Positions 1-56,263 of a stretch of DNA of 64,000 bases are shown piece by piece. Position numbers and translations under genes: made by a program. Each line of letters begins with the position of its first letter. The first letter of the stretch is position 1. The stretch is from contig JADJJY010000005.1 in the NCBI GenBank assembly GCA_016706275.1, forward strand, positions 14,641 to 78,640, in the 5' to 3' direction. This DNA is from Chloracidobacterium sp. GTDB lineage: Bacteria; Acidobacteriota; Blastocatellia; Pyrinomonadales; Pyrinomonadaceae. The notes beneath the pieces are model-generated. The model saw nothing but the letters and a program-made list of their open reading frames with translations. It ran no database searches and was not told where the DNA came from.

Positions 1-1666
1 GAGCATACTGCGAAATATCCTCACGCGGCTCTGAGATCGCCTTGTCCATGATCTCAAGGATATGCATACGGCCTTTCTTGGCCTGCTCGAGAGCTTCCTG
101 GAGGATCATGGCGTTAATGCCGCCGATCTTGATATCCATCTGGAGAGCGGTGATGCCATCCTCGGTACCCGTGACCTTAAAGTCCATGTCGCCATAGTGG
201 TCCTCGGCTCCGGCAATGTCAGATAGGATCGCGTAGCGATTGCCTTCCATCACCAGTCCCATCGCGACTCCGGCCACTGCCTTTTTGATCGGCACACCTG
301 CGTCCATGAGGCTCAGGATGCCGCCGCAGACAGATGCCATCGACGACGAACCGTTTGATTCGGTGATGTCTGAAACTATACGTATCGTGTACGGAAACTC
401 CTCTTCGTCCGGCAGAACCGATTGGATCGCACGGCGAGCGAGATTGCCATGGCCAGTCTCGCGACGTGATGTGCTGCCAAATCTGCCGGTTTCACCGACC
501 GAATACGGCGGGAAATTATAGTGCAGCATAAAGCGGCGGTCGATGGTACCTTTTTCAAGGTCGTCCATGAACTGTCCGTCCATTTTTGTGCCAAGCGTGG
601 TGGTGACGATCGCCTGTGTCTCTCCGCGGGTAAAGAGCGACGAACCATGGACGCGCGGCAACCAGCCGACCTCCGCCGTGATCGGGCGGATCTCTGAGAA
701 TTTACGTCCGTCCGGACGACGCTTATTAGTTAGCATATCCTCGCGGAAGATCTTTTCCTTGAGTTGGCCAAAAGCCTTGCCTGCCGTCGCACGGGCACCC
801 GGATCATCCTCCGGATAGCTTTCGACGACCTCTTTCTTAAGAGCGTCGAGTCCTGCATAGACCTCGATCTTTTCGCGTCCGGTCGAATCTAGAGCCTTGC
901 GGAGTTTGTCCGTCCAGGTCTTTTCAACGTCGGCAACGATATGAGCATCGAGCTCAGGCACGGTGAATTCACGCTTGGTGATATTAAGAGCCTTTCCGAG
1001 TTCTTTCTGCCACAGGCACAGACGCTTGATCTCGCGGTGTGCGAGCATCAGCGCCTCGACCATGACCGTTTCTTCGACCTCTTCGGCTTCGCATTCGACC
1101 ATACAGATCGCTTCTTCGGTACCAGCGACGATGAGGTTGAGCTGCGATTCGCGGCGTTCGTCAAAAGTCGGGTTTATAATGTACTTGCCTTCGATCAAGC
1201 CGATACGGATACCGGCGATCGGGTCGTTGAACGGGATGTCCGACAGATATAGGGCACAAGACGCACCCGTGATAGCGATCACATCGGGGTCGTTCTCGGC
1301 GTCCGATGAAATGACCGAAGCAACGATCTGCGTTTCAAATCTGTATCCATCAGCGAACAGCGGACGGATCGGACGATCGATCAGTCGGCACGTAAGAATT
1401 TCCTTTTCGCCCGGTCGGCCTTCGCGGCGGAAGTAGTTTCCGGGAATGCGGCCGGCGGCAAAAGAGTTTTCACGATATTCGACCGTGAGCGGGAAAAAAT
1501 CTAAGCCTTCCCTGGCTGTGCGGGCACTGACGGCTGCAACCAGCAACATCGTGTCTCCGTAACGTATAACGACCGAACCGTCGGCCTGTTTGGCAACCTT
1601 GCCTGTTTCTACGATCAGTTCTCTTGTTCCCAACTTGATCGATTCACTCAAATATTTTTTTGTCAT
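1..1666 (-). CDS. pnp: polynucleotide phosphorylase, N-terminal ~555 aa (3' end beyond window edge)
   Basis: Not in the ORF track because it runs off the edge. Reverse translation from ATG 1664-1666 gives MTKKYLSESIKLGTRELIVETGKVAKQADGSVVIRYGDTMLLVAAV...FFPLTVEYRENSFAAGRIPGNYFRREGRPGEKEILTCRLIDRPIRPLF, a typical PNPase N-terminus. It lies downstream of rpsO, the usual arrangement. Confidence 0.9.
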   Translation of the reverse strand, partial: MTKKYLSESIKLGTRELIVETGKVAKQADGSVVIRYGDTMLLVAAVSARTAREGLDFFPLTVEYRENSFAAGRIPGNYFRREGRPGEKEILTCRLIDRPIRPLFADGYRFETQIVASVISSDAENDPDVIAITGASCALYLSDIPFNDPIAGIRIGLIEGKYIINPTFDERRESQLNLIVAGTEEAICMVECEAEEVEETVMVEALMLAHREIKRLCLWQKELGKALNITKREFTVPELDAHIVADVEKTWTDKLRKALDSTGREKIEVYAGLDALKKEVVESYPEDDPGARATAGKAFGQLKEKIFREDMLTNKRRPDGRKFSEIRPITAEVGWLPRVHGSSLFTRGETQAIVTTTLGTKMDGQFMDDLEKGTIDRRFMLHYNFPPYSVGETGRFGSTSRRETGHGNLARRAIQSVLPDEEEFPYTIRIVSDITESNGSSSMASVCGGILSLMDAGVPIKKAVAGVAMGLVMEGNRYAILSDIAGAEDHYGDMDFKVTGTEDGITALQMDIKIGGINAMILQEALEQAKKGRMHILEIMDKAISEPREDISQYA

Positions 1667-2351: not shown

Positions 2352-3701
2352 TTAGACCTCGTACTTGAATTCTTCCATAAACTTGGTCGAAAAATTTCCT
2401 TTCTGAAAATTTTCATCCGCCATGATCGCTTTGTGTAGCGGGATCGTGGTCTTAATTCCCTCAATGACCATCATATCAAGGGCTCGCTGCATACGTGCGA
2501 TCGCCAGTTCGCGTGTGCGGGCGTGGACGATGAGTTTAGCGATCATCGAATCGTAATATGGCGGCACGACATAGCCAGGATAAACAGCAGTATCGACGCG
2601 AACGCCAGGTCCGCCGGGGATGTTAAATGCCGTGATCTTCCCGGGACTCGGCGTAAATTTGACCGGATCCTCAGCGTTGATGCGGCACTCGATCGAATGG
2701 CCGACGATCTGGACCTCGCTTTGCAAATAGCCGATATTCTCGCCGGTGGCGATGCGGATCTGATTTCGGACAATGTCGGCGAGCGTGACCATCTCGGTCA
2801 CCGGATGCTCGACCTGGATGCGGGTGTTCATTTCCATGAAATAAAAACTGCCATCCTCATCAAGCAAAAATTCAAAAGTTCCGGCGCTTGAGTATCCGAT
2901 CTCCTGGCACGCCTTGACTGCGACAGCACCCATCGCTTCACGTTGTTCTACCGTGATTGCAGGCGACGGAGCCTCTTCAAGCAGCTTTTGATGCCGACGC
3001 TGGATGGTGCATTCGCGTTCACCAAGGTGAATGACGTTGCCGTGCTCGTCGGCGAGAACCTGTATTTCGATATGTCTCGGCCGCTCGATGTAACGCTCGA
3101 TATAGACCGCACCGTTCTTAAATGCGTTTAGTGCCTCGGTCTGAGCAAGCTCGAGGCTGGTCTCAACCTCGCTTTCATCGCGAACGATACGCATCCCGCG
3201 TCCGCCGCCGCCGGCAGCGGCTTTGATAATGACGGGCAAACCTATTCGCCCGATCAATTCAAGAGCTTCTTCTTTTGATTCGATCGCCTCGGGGCTGCCG
3301 GGTAAAATCGGGACGCCCGCCGCGGTCATCGTACGGCGGGCCTCGACCTTGTCACCCATCATCGCAATGACGTTGGGTGACGGTCCGATAAATTTGATAT
3401 TGCAATCTTCGCAGATCTTGGCGAACGTCGCGGATTCGGCCAAAAAGCCATAACCCGGATGTATCGCATCGACATTGGTGATCTCGGCGGCGCTGATTAT
3501 CGACGGGATATTGAGATAGCTCTCAGCCGACGATGCCGGCCCGACACAGATCGCCTCATCGGCAAATCGCACATGCAAAGCCTCACGGTCCGCCTCGGAG
3601 TGAACGGCGACGGTCTTAATGCCCATCTCCTTACACGTCCAAATAATGCGGTTAGCGATCTCACCGCGATTTGCTACCAGTATTTTGCGAATTTCCCGCA
3701 T
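2352..3701 (-). CDS. accC: acetyl-CoA carboxylase biotin carboxylase subunit
   Basis: 449 aa. [19 protein letters not shown]..., ATP-grasp motifs ([18 protein letters not shown]). It follows accB. Confidence 0.96.
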
Positions 3702-3781
3702 AAAGATTTTTAGCCACGAGCCACACTAATGTCACGAATAATTCTTTTAATTCGTGCTATTCGTGTAATTCGTGGCTAATT

Positions 3782-44163: not shown

Positions 44164-44239
<76 letters not shown>

Positions 44240-52084: not shown

Positions 52085-52982
52085 CTAATTCCCGCCGATC
52101 GTCCAGTTCTGACCGAAACCAAACTTCTTATTTTCGACGCACTTGGGCGACGCCGGTACAAACGTTTTGCTCTCCTTCGAAGCCGAAAACCCTTTGTCGC
52201 TCACGATCGAGGTTTTGTAAACAAAGATTATTTTAGTTATATCGTCACCATTTGCGCCTTCGAGATCGGAACCTTGCGTATTGTTGCCGAAGTTGACAGT
52301 GATCCCGATTGGAGTCGGGATATCCGCAGCACCGTCAAATGTCACACACTGCCCCCTAGGAGGACAACTAATCGAATTCTGGTTCTGCTGAATCGTCTCG
52401 GTCTTCCACTTACCTGTACGACGATTGAAATACTTGACCGCCGTTACCTTCATAAACTTGTTGGTACCATTCCTGAATTCAAAGGTCACCTGTTTACACG
52501 AACCGCTCGGATTCTCGGGAACCGGTGCCGGAGCCTTTATCTCCCAACGTTGCCCAAACCCATAGGTCTTATCGCGGACGCATCGCGGACTCTACGGAAC
52601 AAATTCGCGGCTCTCATAGTCTTTTTCGTATTCTTATCCTCGAACACAAAACGATCTTGGTCAGATCGTCACCTTCAGCGCTACCGAGATTGTCCCAGCC
52701 AAATTTGCAATCGACATTTCTTGCGCAGGTTTTATTGGGTGTGTCCTCCGTTTTCCACTTGCCGTCGGTCCGGTTGTAATACTTTATTTTCTTGATCTCC
52801 ACCGGGCCGGGCCCGACATTCCACACGATGAACGAGACATTTTGGCACGAATCAAACCTCGCATCGAGGGAATCGTTGACAAGCGACTTCGCACCGCTGG
52901 GTTGTCCCCACCCGTTAAGAGCGTATATTATCGCCGCGATTGCCATGACAGTTGTGATCGTAAGTTTTATTCTAGATCTCAT
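52085..52982 (-). pseudogene. disrupted two-domain paralog of the 53270-54298 secreted protein
   Basis: Track ORFs 52614-52982 and 52085-52489 are the two halves. They can be joined by two frame changes, at a T4 run (52648-52651) and an A5 run (52622-52626), plus read-through of TAG 52592-52594. The joined product reads ...DDLTKIVFVFEDKNTKKDYESREFVP*SPRCVRDKTYGFGQRWEIKAPAPVPENPSGSCKQVTFEFRNG..., the same domain pattern as the intact paralog. Confidence 0.65.
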
Positions 52983-53047
52983 TTTCTCAACTCCATTTCA
53001 ACGTTAGGTTGTCATTTTCTCCCACCACTGAATGACCGCATTTAGCG

Positions 53048-53159
53048 AATTTGGCGGCGAGCATGTATACGGCGGCAAAATCATCGCACGTTCATCAGCG
53101 TCTACGCCGCCGGAGCCCCTGAACTTGCCCCGAAGGTCGTCGCCGAAGCCGCTGCCTAG
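53048..53159 (+). pseudogene. degenerate partial copy of rpmA (3' portion with internal ~115-nt deletion)
   Basis: 53048-53091 aligns with rpmA 51444-51487, and 53092-53159 with rpmA 51603-51670, including the stop. Identity is roughly 85-90 % by eye. There is no start codon and the frame is broken. Confidence 0.8.
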
Positions 53160-53219: not shown

Positions 53220-53249
53220 AAGCACACGTCGTACGGCGCGTGCTTTTTT
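53220..53249 (+). terminator. second copy of the rpmA terminator hairpin
   Basis: AAGCACACG tcgtacgg CGCGTGCTT followed by TTTT. The 60 nt before it also match the sequence downstream of rpmA (gggttattgaac.ccgata.tact.aacattgagaagcacacg). Confidence 0.7.
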
Positions 53250-53269: not shown

Positions 53270-54298
53270 TTAAGGCTTATTCCGGTTAGGCCTTTTAACC
53301 CTGGGTTTCTTGACCGTCGTCGTGGTCGTGCCGTTAACGGCTGCTCCTGCTGCGGGATTCTCAACTCGTGCCGGCGTCTTCCTGGTTGGATTCCCTGTTG
53401 CGTTATTAGTGCTTGACGCAGAGCCCTTTGTGATCGACCAGCTTGCTCCTGTTCCATAATCCTTACCCGGACGGCAGCGTGGGTCCGTCGGAACAAACGT
53501 CTTACTTTCAAAAGGCCCGGACCACTCACCCGCCGAAAAACCGGGGTCCGCAGCAGAATGGGTTTTATACACAAAAATTATCTTAGTAATGTCTTCGCCA
53601 TCCGCATCAGCTAATGTGTCTGGGCCGACAGTACATTTCTGACCCGGCTCACATGTCACATTATTTACTTCTTCGGTCTTCCATTTACCGCTATTCCGGT
53701 TAAAGTATTTGACCTTGTCGATCTTTACATCGCTCCTACTCAAAACGTTGGAACTATTTCCCGTTTTATTCCAAACAACAAATGAAACGTCGGCACAAGA
53801 ATCGCCAATCGTATTTGATCCGGTCGTATTACCAACGATCGCCCAAGCAAATGAATCGCCATACTGTTTATTGGCACGGCACGCAGGGCTTTCCGGCCGA
53901 AACTCCTGACTGATAAAACCGCCGGTCCATCCGTTGCCCATACGCTCCTTAAATTCGTATTTTATCTTGGTGATGTTGTCCCCTTCTGCACTAGACAAAT
54001 TATCGCCGCCCGTATAGCAGCTCTGACCGGGCCGGCAAGTGTTGTACGAGAGGCTCTCCGTACGCCATTTCCCGTCAGTACTGTTGAAATACTGAACCTT
54101 AGTGACCTGGATATCTACTCTCCGGCCGTTGCGAAACGCAAATTTCACGTTCTTACAAGAGTCGAACAACGAGACCGACTCAACCACGTCTGTACTTGCC
54201 GCGACAGCTGCGCCGTAACGCAGGTACACGGCGGTCGTAGCAAAGACCGTCAGAGCCAAAACGGCTATCACGCCCCTGTTTGTTTTCATACCTATCAT
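53270..54298 (-). CDS. secreted protein with two copies of an unrecognised ~110-aa four-Cys domain and a basic low-complexity tail
   Basis: I place the start at ATG 54296-54298 (MIGMKTNRGVIAVLALTVFATTAVYL signal/anchor, GGAGG 12 nt upstream). The track ORF is 367 aa. Repeat 1 is DSCKNVKFAFRNG...VQYFNSTDGKWRTE...CRPGQSC...AEGDNITKIKYEFK...EFRPESPAC...W. Repeat 2 is DSCADVSFVVWNK...VKYFNRNSGKWKTE...CEPGQKC...ADGEDITKIIFVYK...TFVPTDPRC...W. Confidence 0.75.
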   Translation of the reverse strand: MIGMKTNRGVIAVLALTVFATTAVYLRYGAAVAASTDVVESVSLFDSCKNVKFAFRNGRRVDIQVTKVQYFNSTDGKWRTESLSYNTCRPGQSCYTGGDNLSSAEGDNITKIKYEFKERMGNGWTGGFISQEFRPESPACRANKQYGDSFAWAIVGNTTGSNTIGDSCADVSFVVWNKTGNSSNVLSRSDVKIDKVKYFNRNSGKWKTEEVNNVTCEPGQKCTVGPDTLADADGEDITKIIFVYKTHSAADPGFSAGEWSGPFESKTFVPTDPRCRPGKDYGTGASWSITKGSASSTNNATGNPTRKTPARVENPAAGAAVNGTTTTTVKKPRVKRPNRNKP

Positions 54299-54628
54299 AG
54301 AAAAACTTAACCTCCGATCTTTTTTTGACGTTATCATACACCAATTAGCCGAAAATCTATTATTTTTTTTCAAAAAAGCAGGTAGCAGTATCGAACAAAT
54401 ACTTTTTGATCTGAAAATATATCGCTCAGAAAAATTATTGTGATCTTTTTCCTACAACTTAGGGAAACTACATAATAATTGGGTGCAGATCGCACTGCGC
54501 CGTAAATCCTTTGAACCAAAACGTTACTGGATTTTCCACAATCTTATCCACATTTTTTGCACAGGCAAATCCACAGCATTTCCACAGAAGGCCTGTAAAA
54601 TAAAGGCAATAGTTAAAGTACTTTCTAC

Positions 54629-54656
54629 TTGACTTCCGTTTTTTTGGGTGTAAACT
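54629..54656 (+). promoter_or_regulatory. sigma70-like promoter candidate for the structured RNA
   Basis: TTGACT (54629-34), 16 nt, TAAACT (54651-56). Confidence 0.35.
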
Positions 54657-54662
54657 GGTTTC

Positions 54663-55167
54663 ACAGTCGAGGTTGCTAAGGGAACTTTGACCGGCACCGA
54701 GAGGTGGAGCGGACGCGGTGACGCGATCGTTTGAGAGCAGAAGGAGCGGAAAGCCGCTGCTTGGTACGCTCGGAGCCGAAGCCGAAAGGCTTGCTAAGGC
54801 CGGACGAAAGAAAGGCCAAGTTGTTCGGATAAAAACGGACAACGCCCGACGGACTTGATCAGCCAAAGGGTGCTATGTCGCTCACGTCGAAAGACGAGGG
54901 CCTCGTTGCCGGGAACGTAACCGGTGGTGGAGGAAAAGCCACCAAAAAAAGACCTAACGGCACCGTGCTTTCGAGCACAACAGTTTGAATTTATTCATTT
55001 TGGGTGCTGACCGGAGAGAGTCCTCCGCAGGAAGAGCTTCGGGATACAAAATCGGCGGTTCGAACGTGTACATGCGAGAGCCGCCAAACCTTTACCCTAC
55101 ACTTCGGTGAAAGGCAAAGAAAATAAAAGCATCGAAACGGGCAACCGGGACGATGCTTTTGTTTTTT
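54663..55167 (+). ncRNA. candidate ~0.5-kb structured non-coding RNA or long obgE leader (class unknown)
   Basis: No plus-strand ORF of 60 aa or more. At least seven local hairpins, several capped by GNRA or UUCG loops: CGCG-GUGA-CGCG 54714-25; AGCGG-AAAG-CCGCU 54745-58; AAGCC-GAAA-GGCUU 54779-92; 8-bp stem 54820-43; CGUC-GAAA-GACG 54885-96; GGUGG..CCACC 54926-43; GUGCU-UUCG-AGCAC 54965-78. It ends in a terminator AAAGCATCG...CGATGCTTT plus a T-run (55126-55167). Confidence 0.4.
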
Positions 55168-55231
55168 GGCGCGAGTTCGTGGAATTTGTTCGACTTCCCC
55201 TATCGCCGGCAAAGGCTTAGAATAGAAAGTT

Positions 55232-56263
55232 ATGTTCATTGACCGCGTAAAGATCAAGGTAAAGGCCGGTGACGGCGGCAACGGTGTCACGGCTTTTCGG
55301 CGCGAAAAATTTATCCCTCGCGGCGGACCCTCTGGAGGCGATGGCGGTGTTGGCGGCTGCGTGTATATGGAATCGCACGAAGGGCTCAACACTCTGCTGC
55401 ACCTGCGTTACAATCCCGAACACAAGGCCGAACGCGGCCGCCACGGCGAAGGTTCTAACCGTTATGGCAAGGACGGCGAAGACGCTGTCGTCAAGGTACC
55501 GGTCGGCACGCAAGTTTTTGATCCTGAGACTAATGAACTGCTTTTTGATTTCACCGAGCCCGGACAGCGTTATATGGCGGCTAAGGGCGGCAAAGGCGGC
55601 TGGGGCAACTCACACTTTGCGACCGCCACGCGGCAGGCTCCGAAATATCATTACAACGGCCGCCCTGGCGGCGAACGCGAGTTGCAGCTTGAGCTAAAAC
55701 TGATCGCCGATGTCGGGCTGGTCGGCTTTCCAAACGCTGGCAAATCGACGCTGATCTCAGTCATCTCCGCGGCAAAGCCAAAGATCGCCGATTACCCTTT
55801 TACGACGCTTGAGCCCAATTTAGGCGTTGTTGATATGGGTGATTTCAGGACATTTGTCGTCGCCGACATCCCCGGACTCATCGAAGGTGCATCGGACGGA
55901 GCGGGGCTTGGACATCGTTTTCTTCGCCACGTCGAGCGGACAAAACTGATGCTGCATCTCGTAGATGTCTCGTCGCTGTCGGGTCGTGATCCGGTTTCGG
56001 ATTACGAGATCATCAACCGAGAGCTTGCCAATTACGACGCCGACCTCGCAAAACGCCCGCAGCTCATCGTCGCAACAAAGATCGACGCCATGGACGACCC
56101 CGACCGCCTCGATGCCTTAAAGAAAAGGGCGAAAAAGGACAAAATGCCTTTCTTTGAGATCTCGTCAGTAACGAACAAAGGCGTAAAAGATCTGGTGAGT
56201 GCAGTTGCGGTCGCGTTAGACGAAATAACCAGAGAAGAAGCTGAGAAAGCGGCTGCGGTTTAG
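55232..56263 (+). CDS. obgE: GTPase Obg/CgtA
   Basis: 343 aa. [27 protein letters not shown]..., with the G-domain motif GFPNAGKST. Confidence 0.96.

Follow-up and report, generated by a model that had tools for sequence, protein, structure and literature searches.

A predicted gene for a large structured non-coding RNA upstream of obg in Pyrinomonadaceae

Results

The locus and its predicted RNA gene

The present study concerns a 64,000-nt stretch of Chloracidobacterium sp. DNA (GenBank assembly GCA_016706275.1, contig JADJJY010000005.1, positions 14,641 to 78,640), hereafter called the window, and the gap in it between a minus-strand gene ending at 54298 and obg (ATG at 55232). This gap has two compositional parts. 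The AT-rich part (54300-54650) has a GC content of 32-41%, and the purine-rich part (approximately 54660-55170) a GC content of 52-58%. The latter contains a unit that very likely represents an independent gene for a structured non-coding RNA (ncRNA) on the plus strand. A profile of the RNA body matched the window at 54662-55165 with 490 bits, and the gene is single-copy in the window. We place the predicted 5' end at approximately 54662-54666 and the 3' end within the U-run. Homology to a second subclass of this RNA, class B, begins at position 54662 as well. The features of the locus are listed in Table 1.

The initial annotation of this region had stated that no plus-strand open reading frame (ORF) of 60 amino acids (aa) or more lies between promoter and terminator, and that the two minus-strand ORFs are not genuine genes. 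Both statements hold. The longest plus-strand ORF in this interval is 46 aa, and the ATG of another plus-strand ORF (37 aa) was not conserved in an alignment of 43 copies. The minus-strand ORFs (54468-54866 and 54991-55392) are present, but they are not kept as ORFs in relatives. Variability was flat across the three codon phases (0.74, 0.73, and 0.69), with no 3-nt periodicity of substitutions, and 427 of the 466 indels (92%) were out of frame, the other 39 being in frame. Coding or decayed coding sequence, also raised initially, was rejected on the grounds that there was no conserved ORF and no periodicity, and that indels were mostly out of frame.

Selection on the fold and its strand

Homologues were collected by a scan with the Obg protein, using one genome per species. 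The 80 loci obtained were all from metagenome-assembled genomes (MAGs) of Pyrinomonadaceae/Blastocatellia (Acidobacteriota), with Obg identities of 79-99%. Of these, 56 contain the block corresponding to 54529-55169, which in every case precedes obg and shares its orientation. The 43 full-length copies from these loci formed alignment A1, in which invariant blocks alternate with helices that show concerted changes in their two strands and length variation at their tips.

RNAalifold predicted 109 pairs, 61 of which had compensatory changes. Covariation statistics were then calculated on a 135-pair model restricted to the RNA body, with shuffles and slides by 1-3 columns as controls. The proportion of cells that were paired was 93.7%, versus 86.5±0.2% in the shuffles and 34-46% after sliding. 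Both sides had changed in 75 of the 135 pairs, versus 48.3±3.1 in the shuffles (0 of 500 reached 75) and 22-43 after sliding. The covariation score was 0.307, versus 0.173 in the shuffles and approximately 0.07 after sliding. Compensation was found in nearly every helix that varies, including the terminator, and approximately 20 helices were supported by covariation. An all-against-all covariation scan for pseudoknots was set aside because it was too permissive and because the split between the two subclasses gave spurious signal.

The minimum free energy of the plus strand was -203.1 kcal/mol (z = -5.67), and 0 of 100 dinucleotide shuffles were as good, versus -160.4 kcal/mol (z = -2.1) for the minus strand. 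Many conserved G-U pairs fit the plus strand only; for example, columns 542/631 are GU in 42 of the 43 sequences. These comparisons strongly support a fold under selection as a plus-strand RNA. The conservation and covariation in relatives agree with the RNA proposed in the initial annotation, as does the choice of strand.

Table 1. Predicted features of the RNA gene and its surroundings (positions in the window)
Feature	Position	Strand	Remarks
Four direct DnaA-box-like 9-mers	54532-54586	+	Two close pairs, variable spacer; class A only
9-mer 1, TTTTCCACA	54532-40	+	
9-mer 2, TTATCCACA	54544-52	+	Perfect consensus
9-mer 3, AAATCCACA	54567-75	+	
9-mer 4, ATTTCCACA	54578-86	+	
Imperfect inverted repeat GGCCTGTAAAATAAAGGC	54590-54607	+	Family consensus GCCC-N9-GGGC; between boxes and promoter; columns 77-94, partly conserved
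Promoter of the RNA gene	54608-54656	+	From scan and conservation
A/T-rich UP-like stretch AATAGTTAAAGTACTTTCTAC	54608-28	+	
-35 element TTGACT	54629-34	+	Followed by 16-nt spacer
-10 element TAAACT	54651-56	+	
Predicted transcript, structured ncRNA	54662-55167	+	Approximately 505 nt
5' hairpin P1	54666-54691	+	Helix 1: 5/11 pairs changed on both sides; 95.7% paired
Branched 5' domain	54692-54778	+	Closing helix 54692-701/54769-78
Arm of branched domain	54707-12/54727-32	+	Capped by GCG-GUGA-CGC (54715-24), GUGA at 54718-21
Second arm of branched domain	54736-40/54757-61	+	Capped by GCGG-AAAG-CCGC, AAAG at 54748-51
Hairpin AAGCC-GAAA-GGCUU	54779-54792	+	GNRA tetraloop (GAAA 54784-87); invariant in 43/43, conserved in class B
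Variable hairpin	54797-54817	+	GAAA around 54805; columns 287-347
Hairpin GUUGUUCG/CGGACAAC	54820-54843	+	Invariant loop GAUAAAAA; helix 10: 7/8 compensatory, 98.3% paired
Variable-length hairpin	54880-54901	+	GAAA 54888-91; tip longer in relatives; helix 13: 4/8 compensatory
Invariant core	54905-54957	+	Longest invariant block in Obg-retrieved loci; conserved in class B
Core hairpin GCCGG-GAACGUAA-CCGGU	54908-25	+	Fixed 8-nt loop
Core hairpin GGUGG-AGGAAAAG-CCACC	54926-43	+	Fixed 8-nt loop
A-rich single strand AAAAAAAGACCUAAC	3' part of core 54905-57	+	Ends in CCUAAC
Long-range helix CGGCACC (54958-64)/GGUGCUG (55003-09)	54958-55009	+	Helix 18: 5/7 compensatory, 97.3% paired; encloses variable hairpins
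Helix CCGGAGA/UCUUCGG (55011-17/55036-42)	55011-55042	+	Followed by conserved GAUACAAAAUC linker; helices 19-20: 3/7 and 2/3 compensatory
8-bp helix 55054-61/55078-85	55054-55085	+	Invariant 16-nt apical loop; helix 21: 6/8 compensatory
Hairpin CAC-UUCG-GUG	55100-55109	+	UUCG 55103-06; CUUCGG conserved
Intrinsic terminator	55123-55167	+	Long stem 55126-34/55151-60 with inner stem, then U-run
-10 element TAGAAT of the obg promoter	55218-55223	+	8 nt before obg ATG at 55232; bounds the RNA gene

Anatomy of the RNA

All of the structural elements listed are common to class A, the subclass linked to obg, and class B. The hairpin loops predicted initially (GNRA-type, AAAG, and UUCG, on the plus strand) were located as GUGA, AAAG, three GAAA, and UUCG. 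The long-range helix drawn in the initial annotation, between GGUGC at 54869-73 and GCACC at 54960-64, was not upheld; GCACC instead pairs with the GGUGCUG of helix 18. In the branched 5' domain, the compensatory pairs of helices 2-6 were 7/11, 6/6, 1/3, 3/4, and 2/5, respectively. The hairpin AAGCC-GAAA-GGCUU never varies, and its pairing is therefore beyond the covariation test. The variable hairpin that follows it carries an insertion of approximately 30-40 nt in one subgroup (loci L057, L066, L068, L072, and L078). The apical loop of the 8-bp helix contains GUGUACAUG (55066-74, with the palindrome UGUACA), which is invariant in both subclasses and lay outside the search pattern used to retrieve copies. 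This loop can also form a small internal hairpin, CGU-GUAC-AUG (helix 22). GAAA is enriched in the RNA (9 observed versus 3.5±1.7 expected). GGA is not enriched (17 versus 13.4±3.0), and AGGA occurs 3 times versus 4.0 expected.

The strong hairpin and T-run that had been noted near 55126-55167 are present as the terminator in Table 1. Compensatory changes were found in 12/15 and 3/3 pairs of its helices 23-24, and the T-run was conserved in the 43 copies. The predicted RNA gene thus has a terminator of its own, which is maintained by selection.

Upstream control region

The promoter-like TTGACT-16-TAAACT of the initial annotation was recovered by a scan. As a lone consensus match, it is at the level expected by chance (3 sites found versus 3.0 expected). 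Among the 43 aligned sequences, columns A83 to C105, which include the TTGAC of the -35 element and its flanks, are invariant or nearly so, and the -10 element reads TAAACT or TAAGAT. Class B has an analogous promoter of different sequence, which reads AAAAATAAAACAC…TTGAYN-17-TATAAA. Conservation points to a sigma-70-type promoter that belongs to the RNA gene itself.

The four 9-mers upstream of this promoter differ from the DnaA box TTATCCACA by 0-2 mismatches, and boxes 2 and 3 of the family consensus are perfect matches. Of the 18 TCCACA/TGTGGA hexamers in the window, 4 fall here within 52 bp. The boxes hardly change across the 43 class A homologues, in contrast to the freely varying spacer between the pairs. 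In BLAST comparisons, similarity to relatives begins precisely at the TCCACA box cluster and stops at the T-run. Class B has no TCCACA boxes upstream of the RNA. A preference of Escherichia coli DnaA for pairs of sites is reported (PMC11317965). Judging from the consensus match, DnaA may bind the 9-mers described here.

A replication origin (oriC) was rejected: a box cluster is present, but the GC skew is negative on both sides and there is no conserved AT-rich unwinding flank. With neither a sign change in the skew across the window nor conservation of the AT-rich flank, the arrangement suggests a DnaA-bound promoter region or a titration site rather than an origin. The boxes may also titrate DnaA besides any role in the promoter. 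DnaA-box clusters outside oriC (DnaA-regulated promoters and datA/DARS) similarly have several consensus 9-mers in close pairs upstream of a promoter. However, the cluster described here precedes an ncRNA gene and is absent from class B, and DnaA binding to it is predicted. A protein may bind the imperfect inverted repeat GGCCTGTAAAATAAAGGC that separates the boxes from the promoter.

Two subclasses of the RNA

Searching with a 27-mer taken from the invariant core yielded at least 120 contigs from soil metagenomes, about half of which carry class B, and full-length copies amounted to 125 unique sequences. Class A lies between rplU-rpmA and obg-nadD-rsfS. Class B is approximately 480 nt, and its homology to class A is confined to the RNA body, starting from the predicted 5' end. 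It is located between a HIT-family gene and a VOC/glyoxalase gene (Pfam assignments), including in NCBI Pyrinomonadaceae MAGs; other class B neighbourhoods contain lpxD or RNase E/G. Two class B loci are in NCBI assemblies, namely L231 (RNA at 3314-3779; proteins labelled Pyrinomonadaceae bacterium) and L232. A 1208-nt metagenome contig (L132) carries two tandem class B copies, which are 84% identical and each have their own promoter and terminator. The element does not always precede obg, as had been asked of it initially; class B occurs at unrelated loci, and some rpmA-obg pairs are without the RNA.

Several observations were made on the neighbours. In L231, L232, and approximately 15 metagenome loci, the class B gene order is PolX-like ... 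a protein of unknown function with a NPDLISGIYNYCDRWCERC motif, HIT, RNA, VOC/glyoxalase, and EamA. It continues with the divergent genes LexA, UDG, RecA-like (ImuA-type), and ImuB-like, making the neighbourhood rich in DNA repair genes. A pair of small ORFs, one of approximately 170 aa (MRDLA..K(I/F)..F...FG...) and a partner of approximately 90-100 aa, was found upstream of the RNA gene in L018, L061, L062, L076, L089, L093, and L200 and downstream of it in L064, L067, and L029. Together, the two ORFs resemble a toxin-antitoxin pair, and the sequences flanking the RNA gene may be a hot spot for insertions.

Relationship with obg and the neighbouring genes

The distance between the RNA and obg is 15-160 nt in most loci. 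In others, it is 300-840 nt, with small inserted ORFs between them, or 2.0-3.5 kb, with either a CLC channel gene or two genes for FtsX-type permeases, all on the minus strand, between them. Opposite-strand CLC-channel/FtsX-permease genes or small ORFs separate the RNA from obg in at least 20 loci. The upstream neighbours are of at least 25 different kinds, with rpmA or rplU in this position in some loci, yet the unit of boxes, promoter, RNA, and terminator is kept intact. Some relatives have obg immediately after rpmA and no RNA.

The -10-like TAGAAT that the initial annotation saw before obg was confirmed as one variant of a -10 element (TAGAAT, TACAAT, or TAAAAT) conserved 7-12 nt before the start codon (ATG or GTG) in 45 loci. 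The accompanying -35 element is TTGCTA or TTGCCA; in the most compact loci it is TTCGAC, which overlaps the RNA terminator. No Shine-Dalgarno sequence was found before the obg start in 55190-55240 of the window or in the 45 related loci. The short distance between the -10 element and the start codon implies that the predicted obg mRNA is leaderless or has a very short leader.

The initial annotation had left two options, an independent ncRNA and a terminator-controlled leader of obgE. The former stands, with its own promoter and terminator and with class B located elsewhere, and the latter does not, given the intervening genes and the obg promoter. Since the promoter and terminator are kept as the neighbours change, at other loci (class B), and in duplicates, and since obg has its own promoter, the comparison indicates that the RNA is an autonomous gene and not an obg leader. 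We infer that the RNA does not regulate obg in cis.

In the window, rplU (approximately 51037) and rpmA (51371 onward) are located 3 kb upstream of the RNA gene. Three minus-strand genes (52085-52489, 52614-52982, and 53270-54298) are inserted between rpmA and the RNA. They encode related small or repeat proteins sharing a '...Y(F/Y)N...GKWKTE...' module; the product of 53270-54298, the only one of the three that was scanned, had no Pfam match. A 22-aa L27-like fragment, FGGEHVYGGKIIAR, is present at 53038-53103, and a plus-strand terminator is next, at 53225-53243. This arrangement looks like an insertion into an ancestral rpmA-RNA-obg order.

Comparison with known RNA families

A search of the 64-kb window against the 4227 families of Rfam 15 at the gathering threshold returned a single match, a tRNA gene at 44164-44236 (70.1 bits). 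At E <= 10, the intergenic region gave only noise of no more than 23 bits. Ten class B loci had no Rfam matches, the class B copy in L231 gave only noise at E <= 10, and no family recurred in both classes. The Rfam comparison left open initially therefore yielded no known family for either class. The families covered include OLE, GOLLD, ROOL, raiA, HEARO, 6S, RNase P, tmRNA, SRP, and L21_leader. ARAGORN found no tmRNA genes in 54300-55300. We found no description of this RNA in the literature on structured RNAs of Pyrinomonadaceae, Blastocatellia, and Acidobacteria, and a 50-genome ncRNA survey (PMC11109978) does not mention Acidobacteria.

The RNA is longer than 400 nt and has many covariation-supported helices with invariant nucleotides between them. 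By these features, the predicted RNA belongs to the loose kind of large ornate bacterial ncRNAs, outside the OLE, ROOL, GOLLD, and raiA families. It resembles OLE RNA (RF01071) in size (approximately 500-600 nt for OLE), in its many covariation-supported helices and invariant nucleotides, in being restricted to a lineage, and in having a function that is not obvious from sequence. However, OLE occurs in Firmicutes with partner genes (oapA and others) and has no sequence or structure match to the present RNA, which is from Acidobacteriota, has no conserved partner gene, and has its own promoter and terminator. ROOL and GOLLD are also large and ornate, with multiple tetraloops. These two RNAs and OLE are reported to be homo-oligomeric and RNA-only (PMC12286853); the invariant palindromic loops found here would allow similar contacts. 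In contrast to ROOL and GOLLD, which are often in prophages or near tRNAs, the present RNA is chromosomal and usually single-copy, with no prophage context and no covariance-model match. The raiA motif RNA is likewise structured and adjoins ribosome-associated genes as an independent transcript, as class A does between rplU-rpmA and obg-nadD-rsfS. However, it is approximately 200 nt, is found in Firmicutes and Actinobacteria, and gave no match, and class B lies away from ribosome-related genes. 6S RNA, RNase P RNA, and tmRNA are similarly autonomous genes with strong conserved promoters and terminators, usually with one copy per locus and a variable position. The present RNA differs from them in being branched rather than a 6S rod, in lacking P4-type conserved sequences, and in reaching no Rfam threshold. 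The L21 (rplU) leader and other r-protein leaders share the rplU-rpmA-obg neighbourhood, but the present RNA is downstream of rpmA rather than upstream of rplU, exceeds them approximately 5-fold in size, is bounded by a promoter and terminator of its own, and gave no match.

RNA-phage contigs carrying pieces of the RNA

Two levivirus contigs in IMG/VR (L201 and L205) carry sense-oriented pieces of class B RNA. The Pfam matches were Phage_mat-A (1e-12) and RNA_replicase_B (2e-73) in L201 and Phage_mat-A (9e-7) in L205. In L201, the central core of the RNA is at nt 186-391, ahead of the phage 5' untranslated region, and a relative (L235) places the true 5' end of this phage after the RNA fragment. 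In L205 (nt 25-302, minus strand), the RNA from approximately 12 nt inside its 5' end onward replaces the distal replicase gene. L205 shares 99.87% identity over 3161 nt with a complete phage from another sample (L236). Beyond the junction, L236 goes on with replicase sequence, whereas L205 switches into the RNA at a GTTGAGG microhomology of approximately 8 nt. No additional cases emerged from two further motif scans of viral contigs. A phage-encoded RNA core was rejected, because the near-identical complete phage without the RNA piece shows that the contigs are chimeras. Template switching, by reverse transcriptase in library preparation or by the phage replicase, explains the fusions. Since fragments fused to a levivirus can only come from RNA-derived libraries, these contigs are indirect evidence that the RNA is present as RNA in such samples, where it is probably abundant.

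Discussion

Taken as a whole, the results make it reasonably probable that the locus at 54532-55167 is a complete, autonomous gene for a trans-acting structured ncRNA of approximately 500 nt, from a family that is not in Rfam 15. Such an RNA would be stable, made at a high level, and folded into a compact tertiary structure. The variable peripheral helices would serve as a scaffold, and the invariant core and loops would form its active surface, most likely as the place where a conserved cellular protein docks to form a ribonucleoprotein (RNP), as with OLE or 6S RNA. Docking might involve the GNRA loops together with the conserved CCUAAC and the A-rich strands. Contacts between RNA copies may also occur via the self-complementary UGUACA and ACGU loops. 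In the obg-linked subclass, the four DnaA boxes would put transcription under the control of DnaA and couple the amount of RNA to the state of replication or growth. The protein-binding scaffold is a tentative suggestion for the mode of action, and we hold it with much less confidence than the existence of the gene.

Several points weigh against this interpretation. The transcript ends and abundance are predictions, and DnaA binding was deduced from the 9-mer consensus. Class B is without the boxes, so that DnaA control does not extend to the whole family. Beside the gene, no conserved protein partner is shared by the two subclasses, which leaves the RNP idea without genomic support. The invariant elements are beyond the reach of covariation, and retrieval with the 27-mer inflates the apparent invariance of the core in the metagenome set, leaving the Obg-retrieved set unaffected. 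The phage fusions could be library artefacts.

Other functions for a trans-acting RNA were considered. An RNA-only homo-oligomer, self-assembling through kissing loops with no protein partner, is reported for OLE, ROOL, and GOLLD (PMC12286853). The invariant loops of the present RNA are self-complementary (UGUACA in GUGUACAUG and ACGU in GAACGUAA at 54913-20), an intermolecular palindrome would resist change, which fits the lack of variation, and there are many GNRA loops. However, a loop palindrome of 4-6 nt is weak evidence, inferred purely from sequence, and the UGUACA loop can fold internally; we regard self-assembly as unlikely. A regulator that sequesters proteins in the manner of 6S or CsrB/RsmZ, titrating RNA polymerase, CsrA, Hfq, or S1, appears somewhat less likely still. 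It would fit the strong autonomous promoter and terminator, the A-rich single strands that resemble (ARN)n/S1-type sites, and an invariant loop containing AGGA, and growth-linked control is plausible via the DnaA boxes. In contrast, the RNA lacks an array of similar hairpins, its branched architecture is not that of the 6S rod with a central bubble, and no 6S or CsrB match was obtained even at E <= 10. A CsrA sponge was rejected, as neither GGA nor AGGA counts exceeded expectation. RNase P and group I/II introns combine an invariant core with variable helices and docking tetraloops. The size of the present RNA, its invariant core amid variable helices, and several tetraloops suited to tertiary docking recall such large ribozymes. 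However, it has no similarity to any known ribozyme model, and no processing site, flanking exon logic, or associated substrate genes are apparent, making catalysis of this kind a very unlikely function.

Explanations without an autonomous RNA carry even less weight. A cis-acting leader or attenuator, in which read-through of the terminator at 55123-55167 controls obg-nadD-rsfS-rlmH, would fit most class A loci, where the RNA immediately precedes obg in the same orientation at distances down to 15-26 nt, and some read-through is always possible. We consider it highly improbable given the opposite-strand genes in between, class B being nowhere near obg, the relatives with rpmA-obg and no RNA, and the predicted -10 and -35 elements of obg itself. 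Furthermore, the terminator stem is long, covaries, and has no interruption, and a non-exhaustive inspection of the consensus folds showed no conserved antiterminator or other competing pairing. We give next to no credence to the two readings that dispense with a functional RNA. One of these holds that the locus works as DNA, for instance as a replication origin or a DnaA site of the datA/DARS kind, and that its apparent RNA fold is incidental. Four conserved DnaA-box-like 9-mers in two close pairs beside a stretch of 32% GC favour this view, but besides the absence of a GC-skew switch, the AT-rich upstream flank is not conserved and the neighbours differ, class B has the RNA without boxes, and the compensatory changes and strand-specific G-U pairs point to selection on RNA. 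In the other, which is just as improbable, the unit is a decayed or small coding sequence or a derivative of a phage or mobile element. The short plus-strand ORFs, the fragments in two levivirus contigs, and the variable genomic position are in its favour. The lack of codon periodicity, the out-of-frame indels, and the unconserved ATG of the 37-aa ORF are not, and a complete phage relative is without the fragment and nearly identical up to the junction. The unit is also single-copy in the window, and no integrase, repeats, or transposase lie alongside.

To return to the favoured reading of an autonomous trans-acting RNA, bacterial ncRNAs longer than approximately 400 nt with dense covariation-supported structure are rare to our knowledge, with about a dozen classes recognised, and each large class that we know to have been studied proved unusual, as a ribozyme, an RNP, or an RNA-only cage. 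A more far-reaching version, which we think rather unlikely, is a new class of large tertiary-structured housekeeping RNA, with an invariant core that has a new role (catalysis or an RNA-only or RNP machine) and with wiring to DnaA in one subclass. If true, it would be the first DnaA-controlled large ncRNA and would link the replication cycle to an RNA-based function. Should the connection between the DnaA boxes and the promoter of the RNA gene prove real, the DnaA regulon would gain an RNA. The RNA gene accounts for an "empty" 0.9-kb annotation gap in the conserved rplU-rpmA-obg region. The present results describe an apparently undescribed family of large ncRNAs that is widespread in the soil-abundant Pyrinomonadaceae, with 125 distinct sequences and a testable structure.

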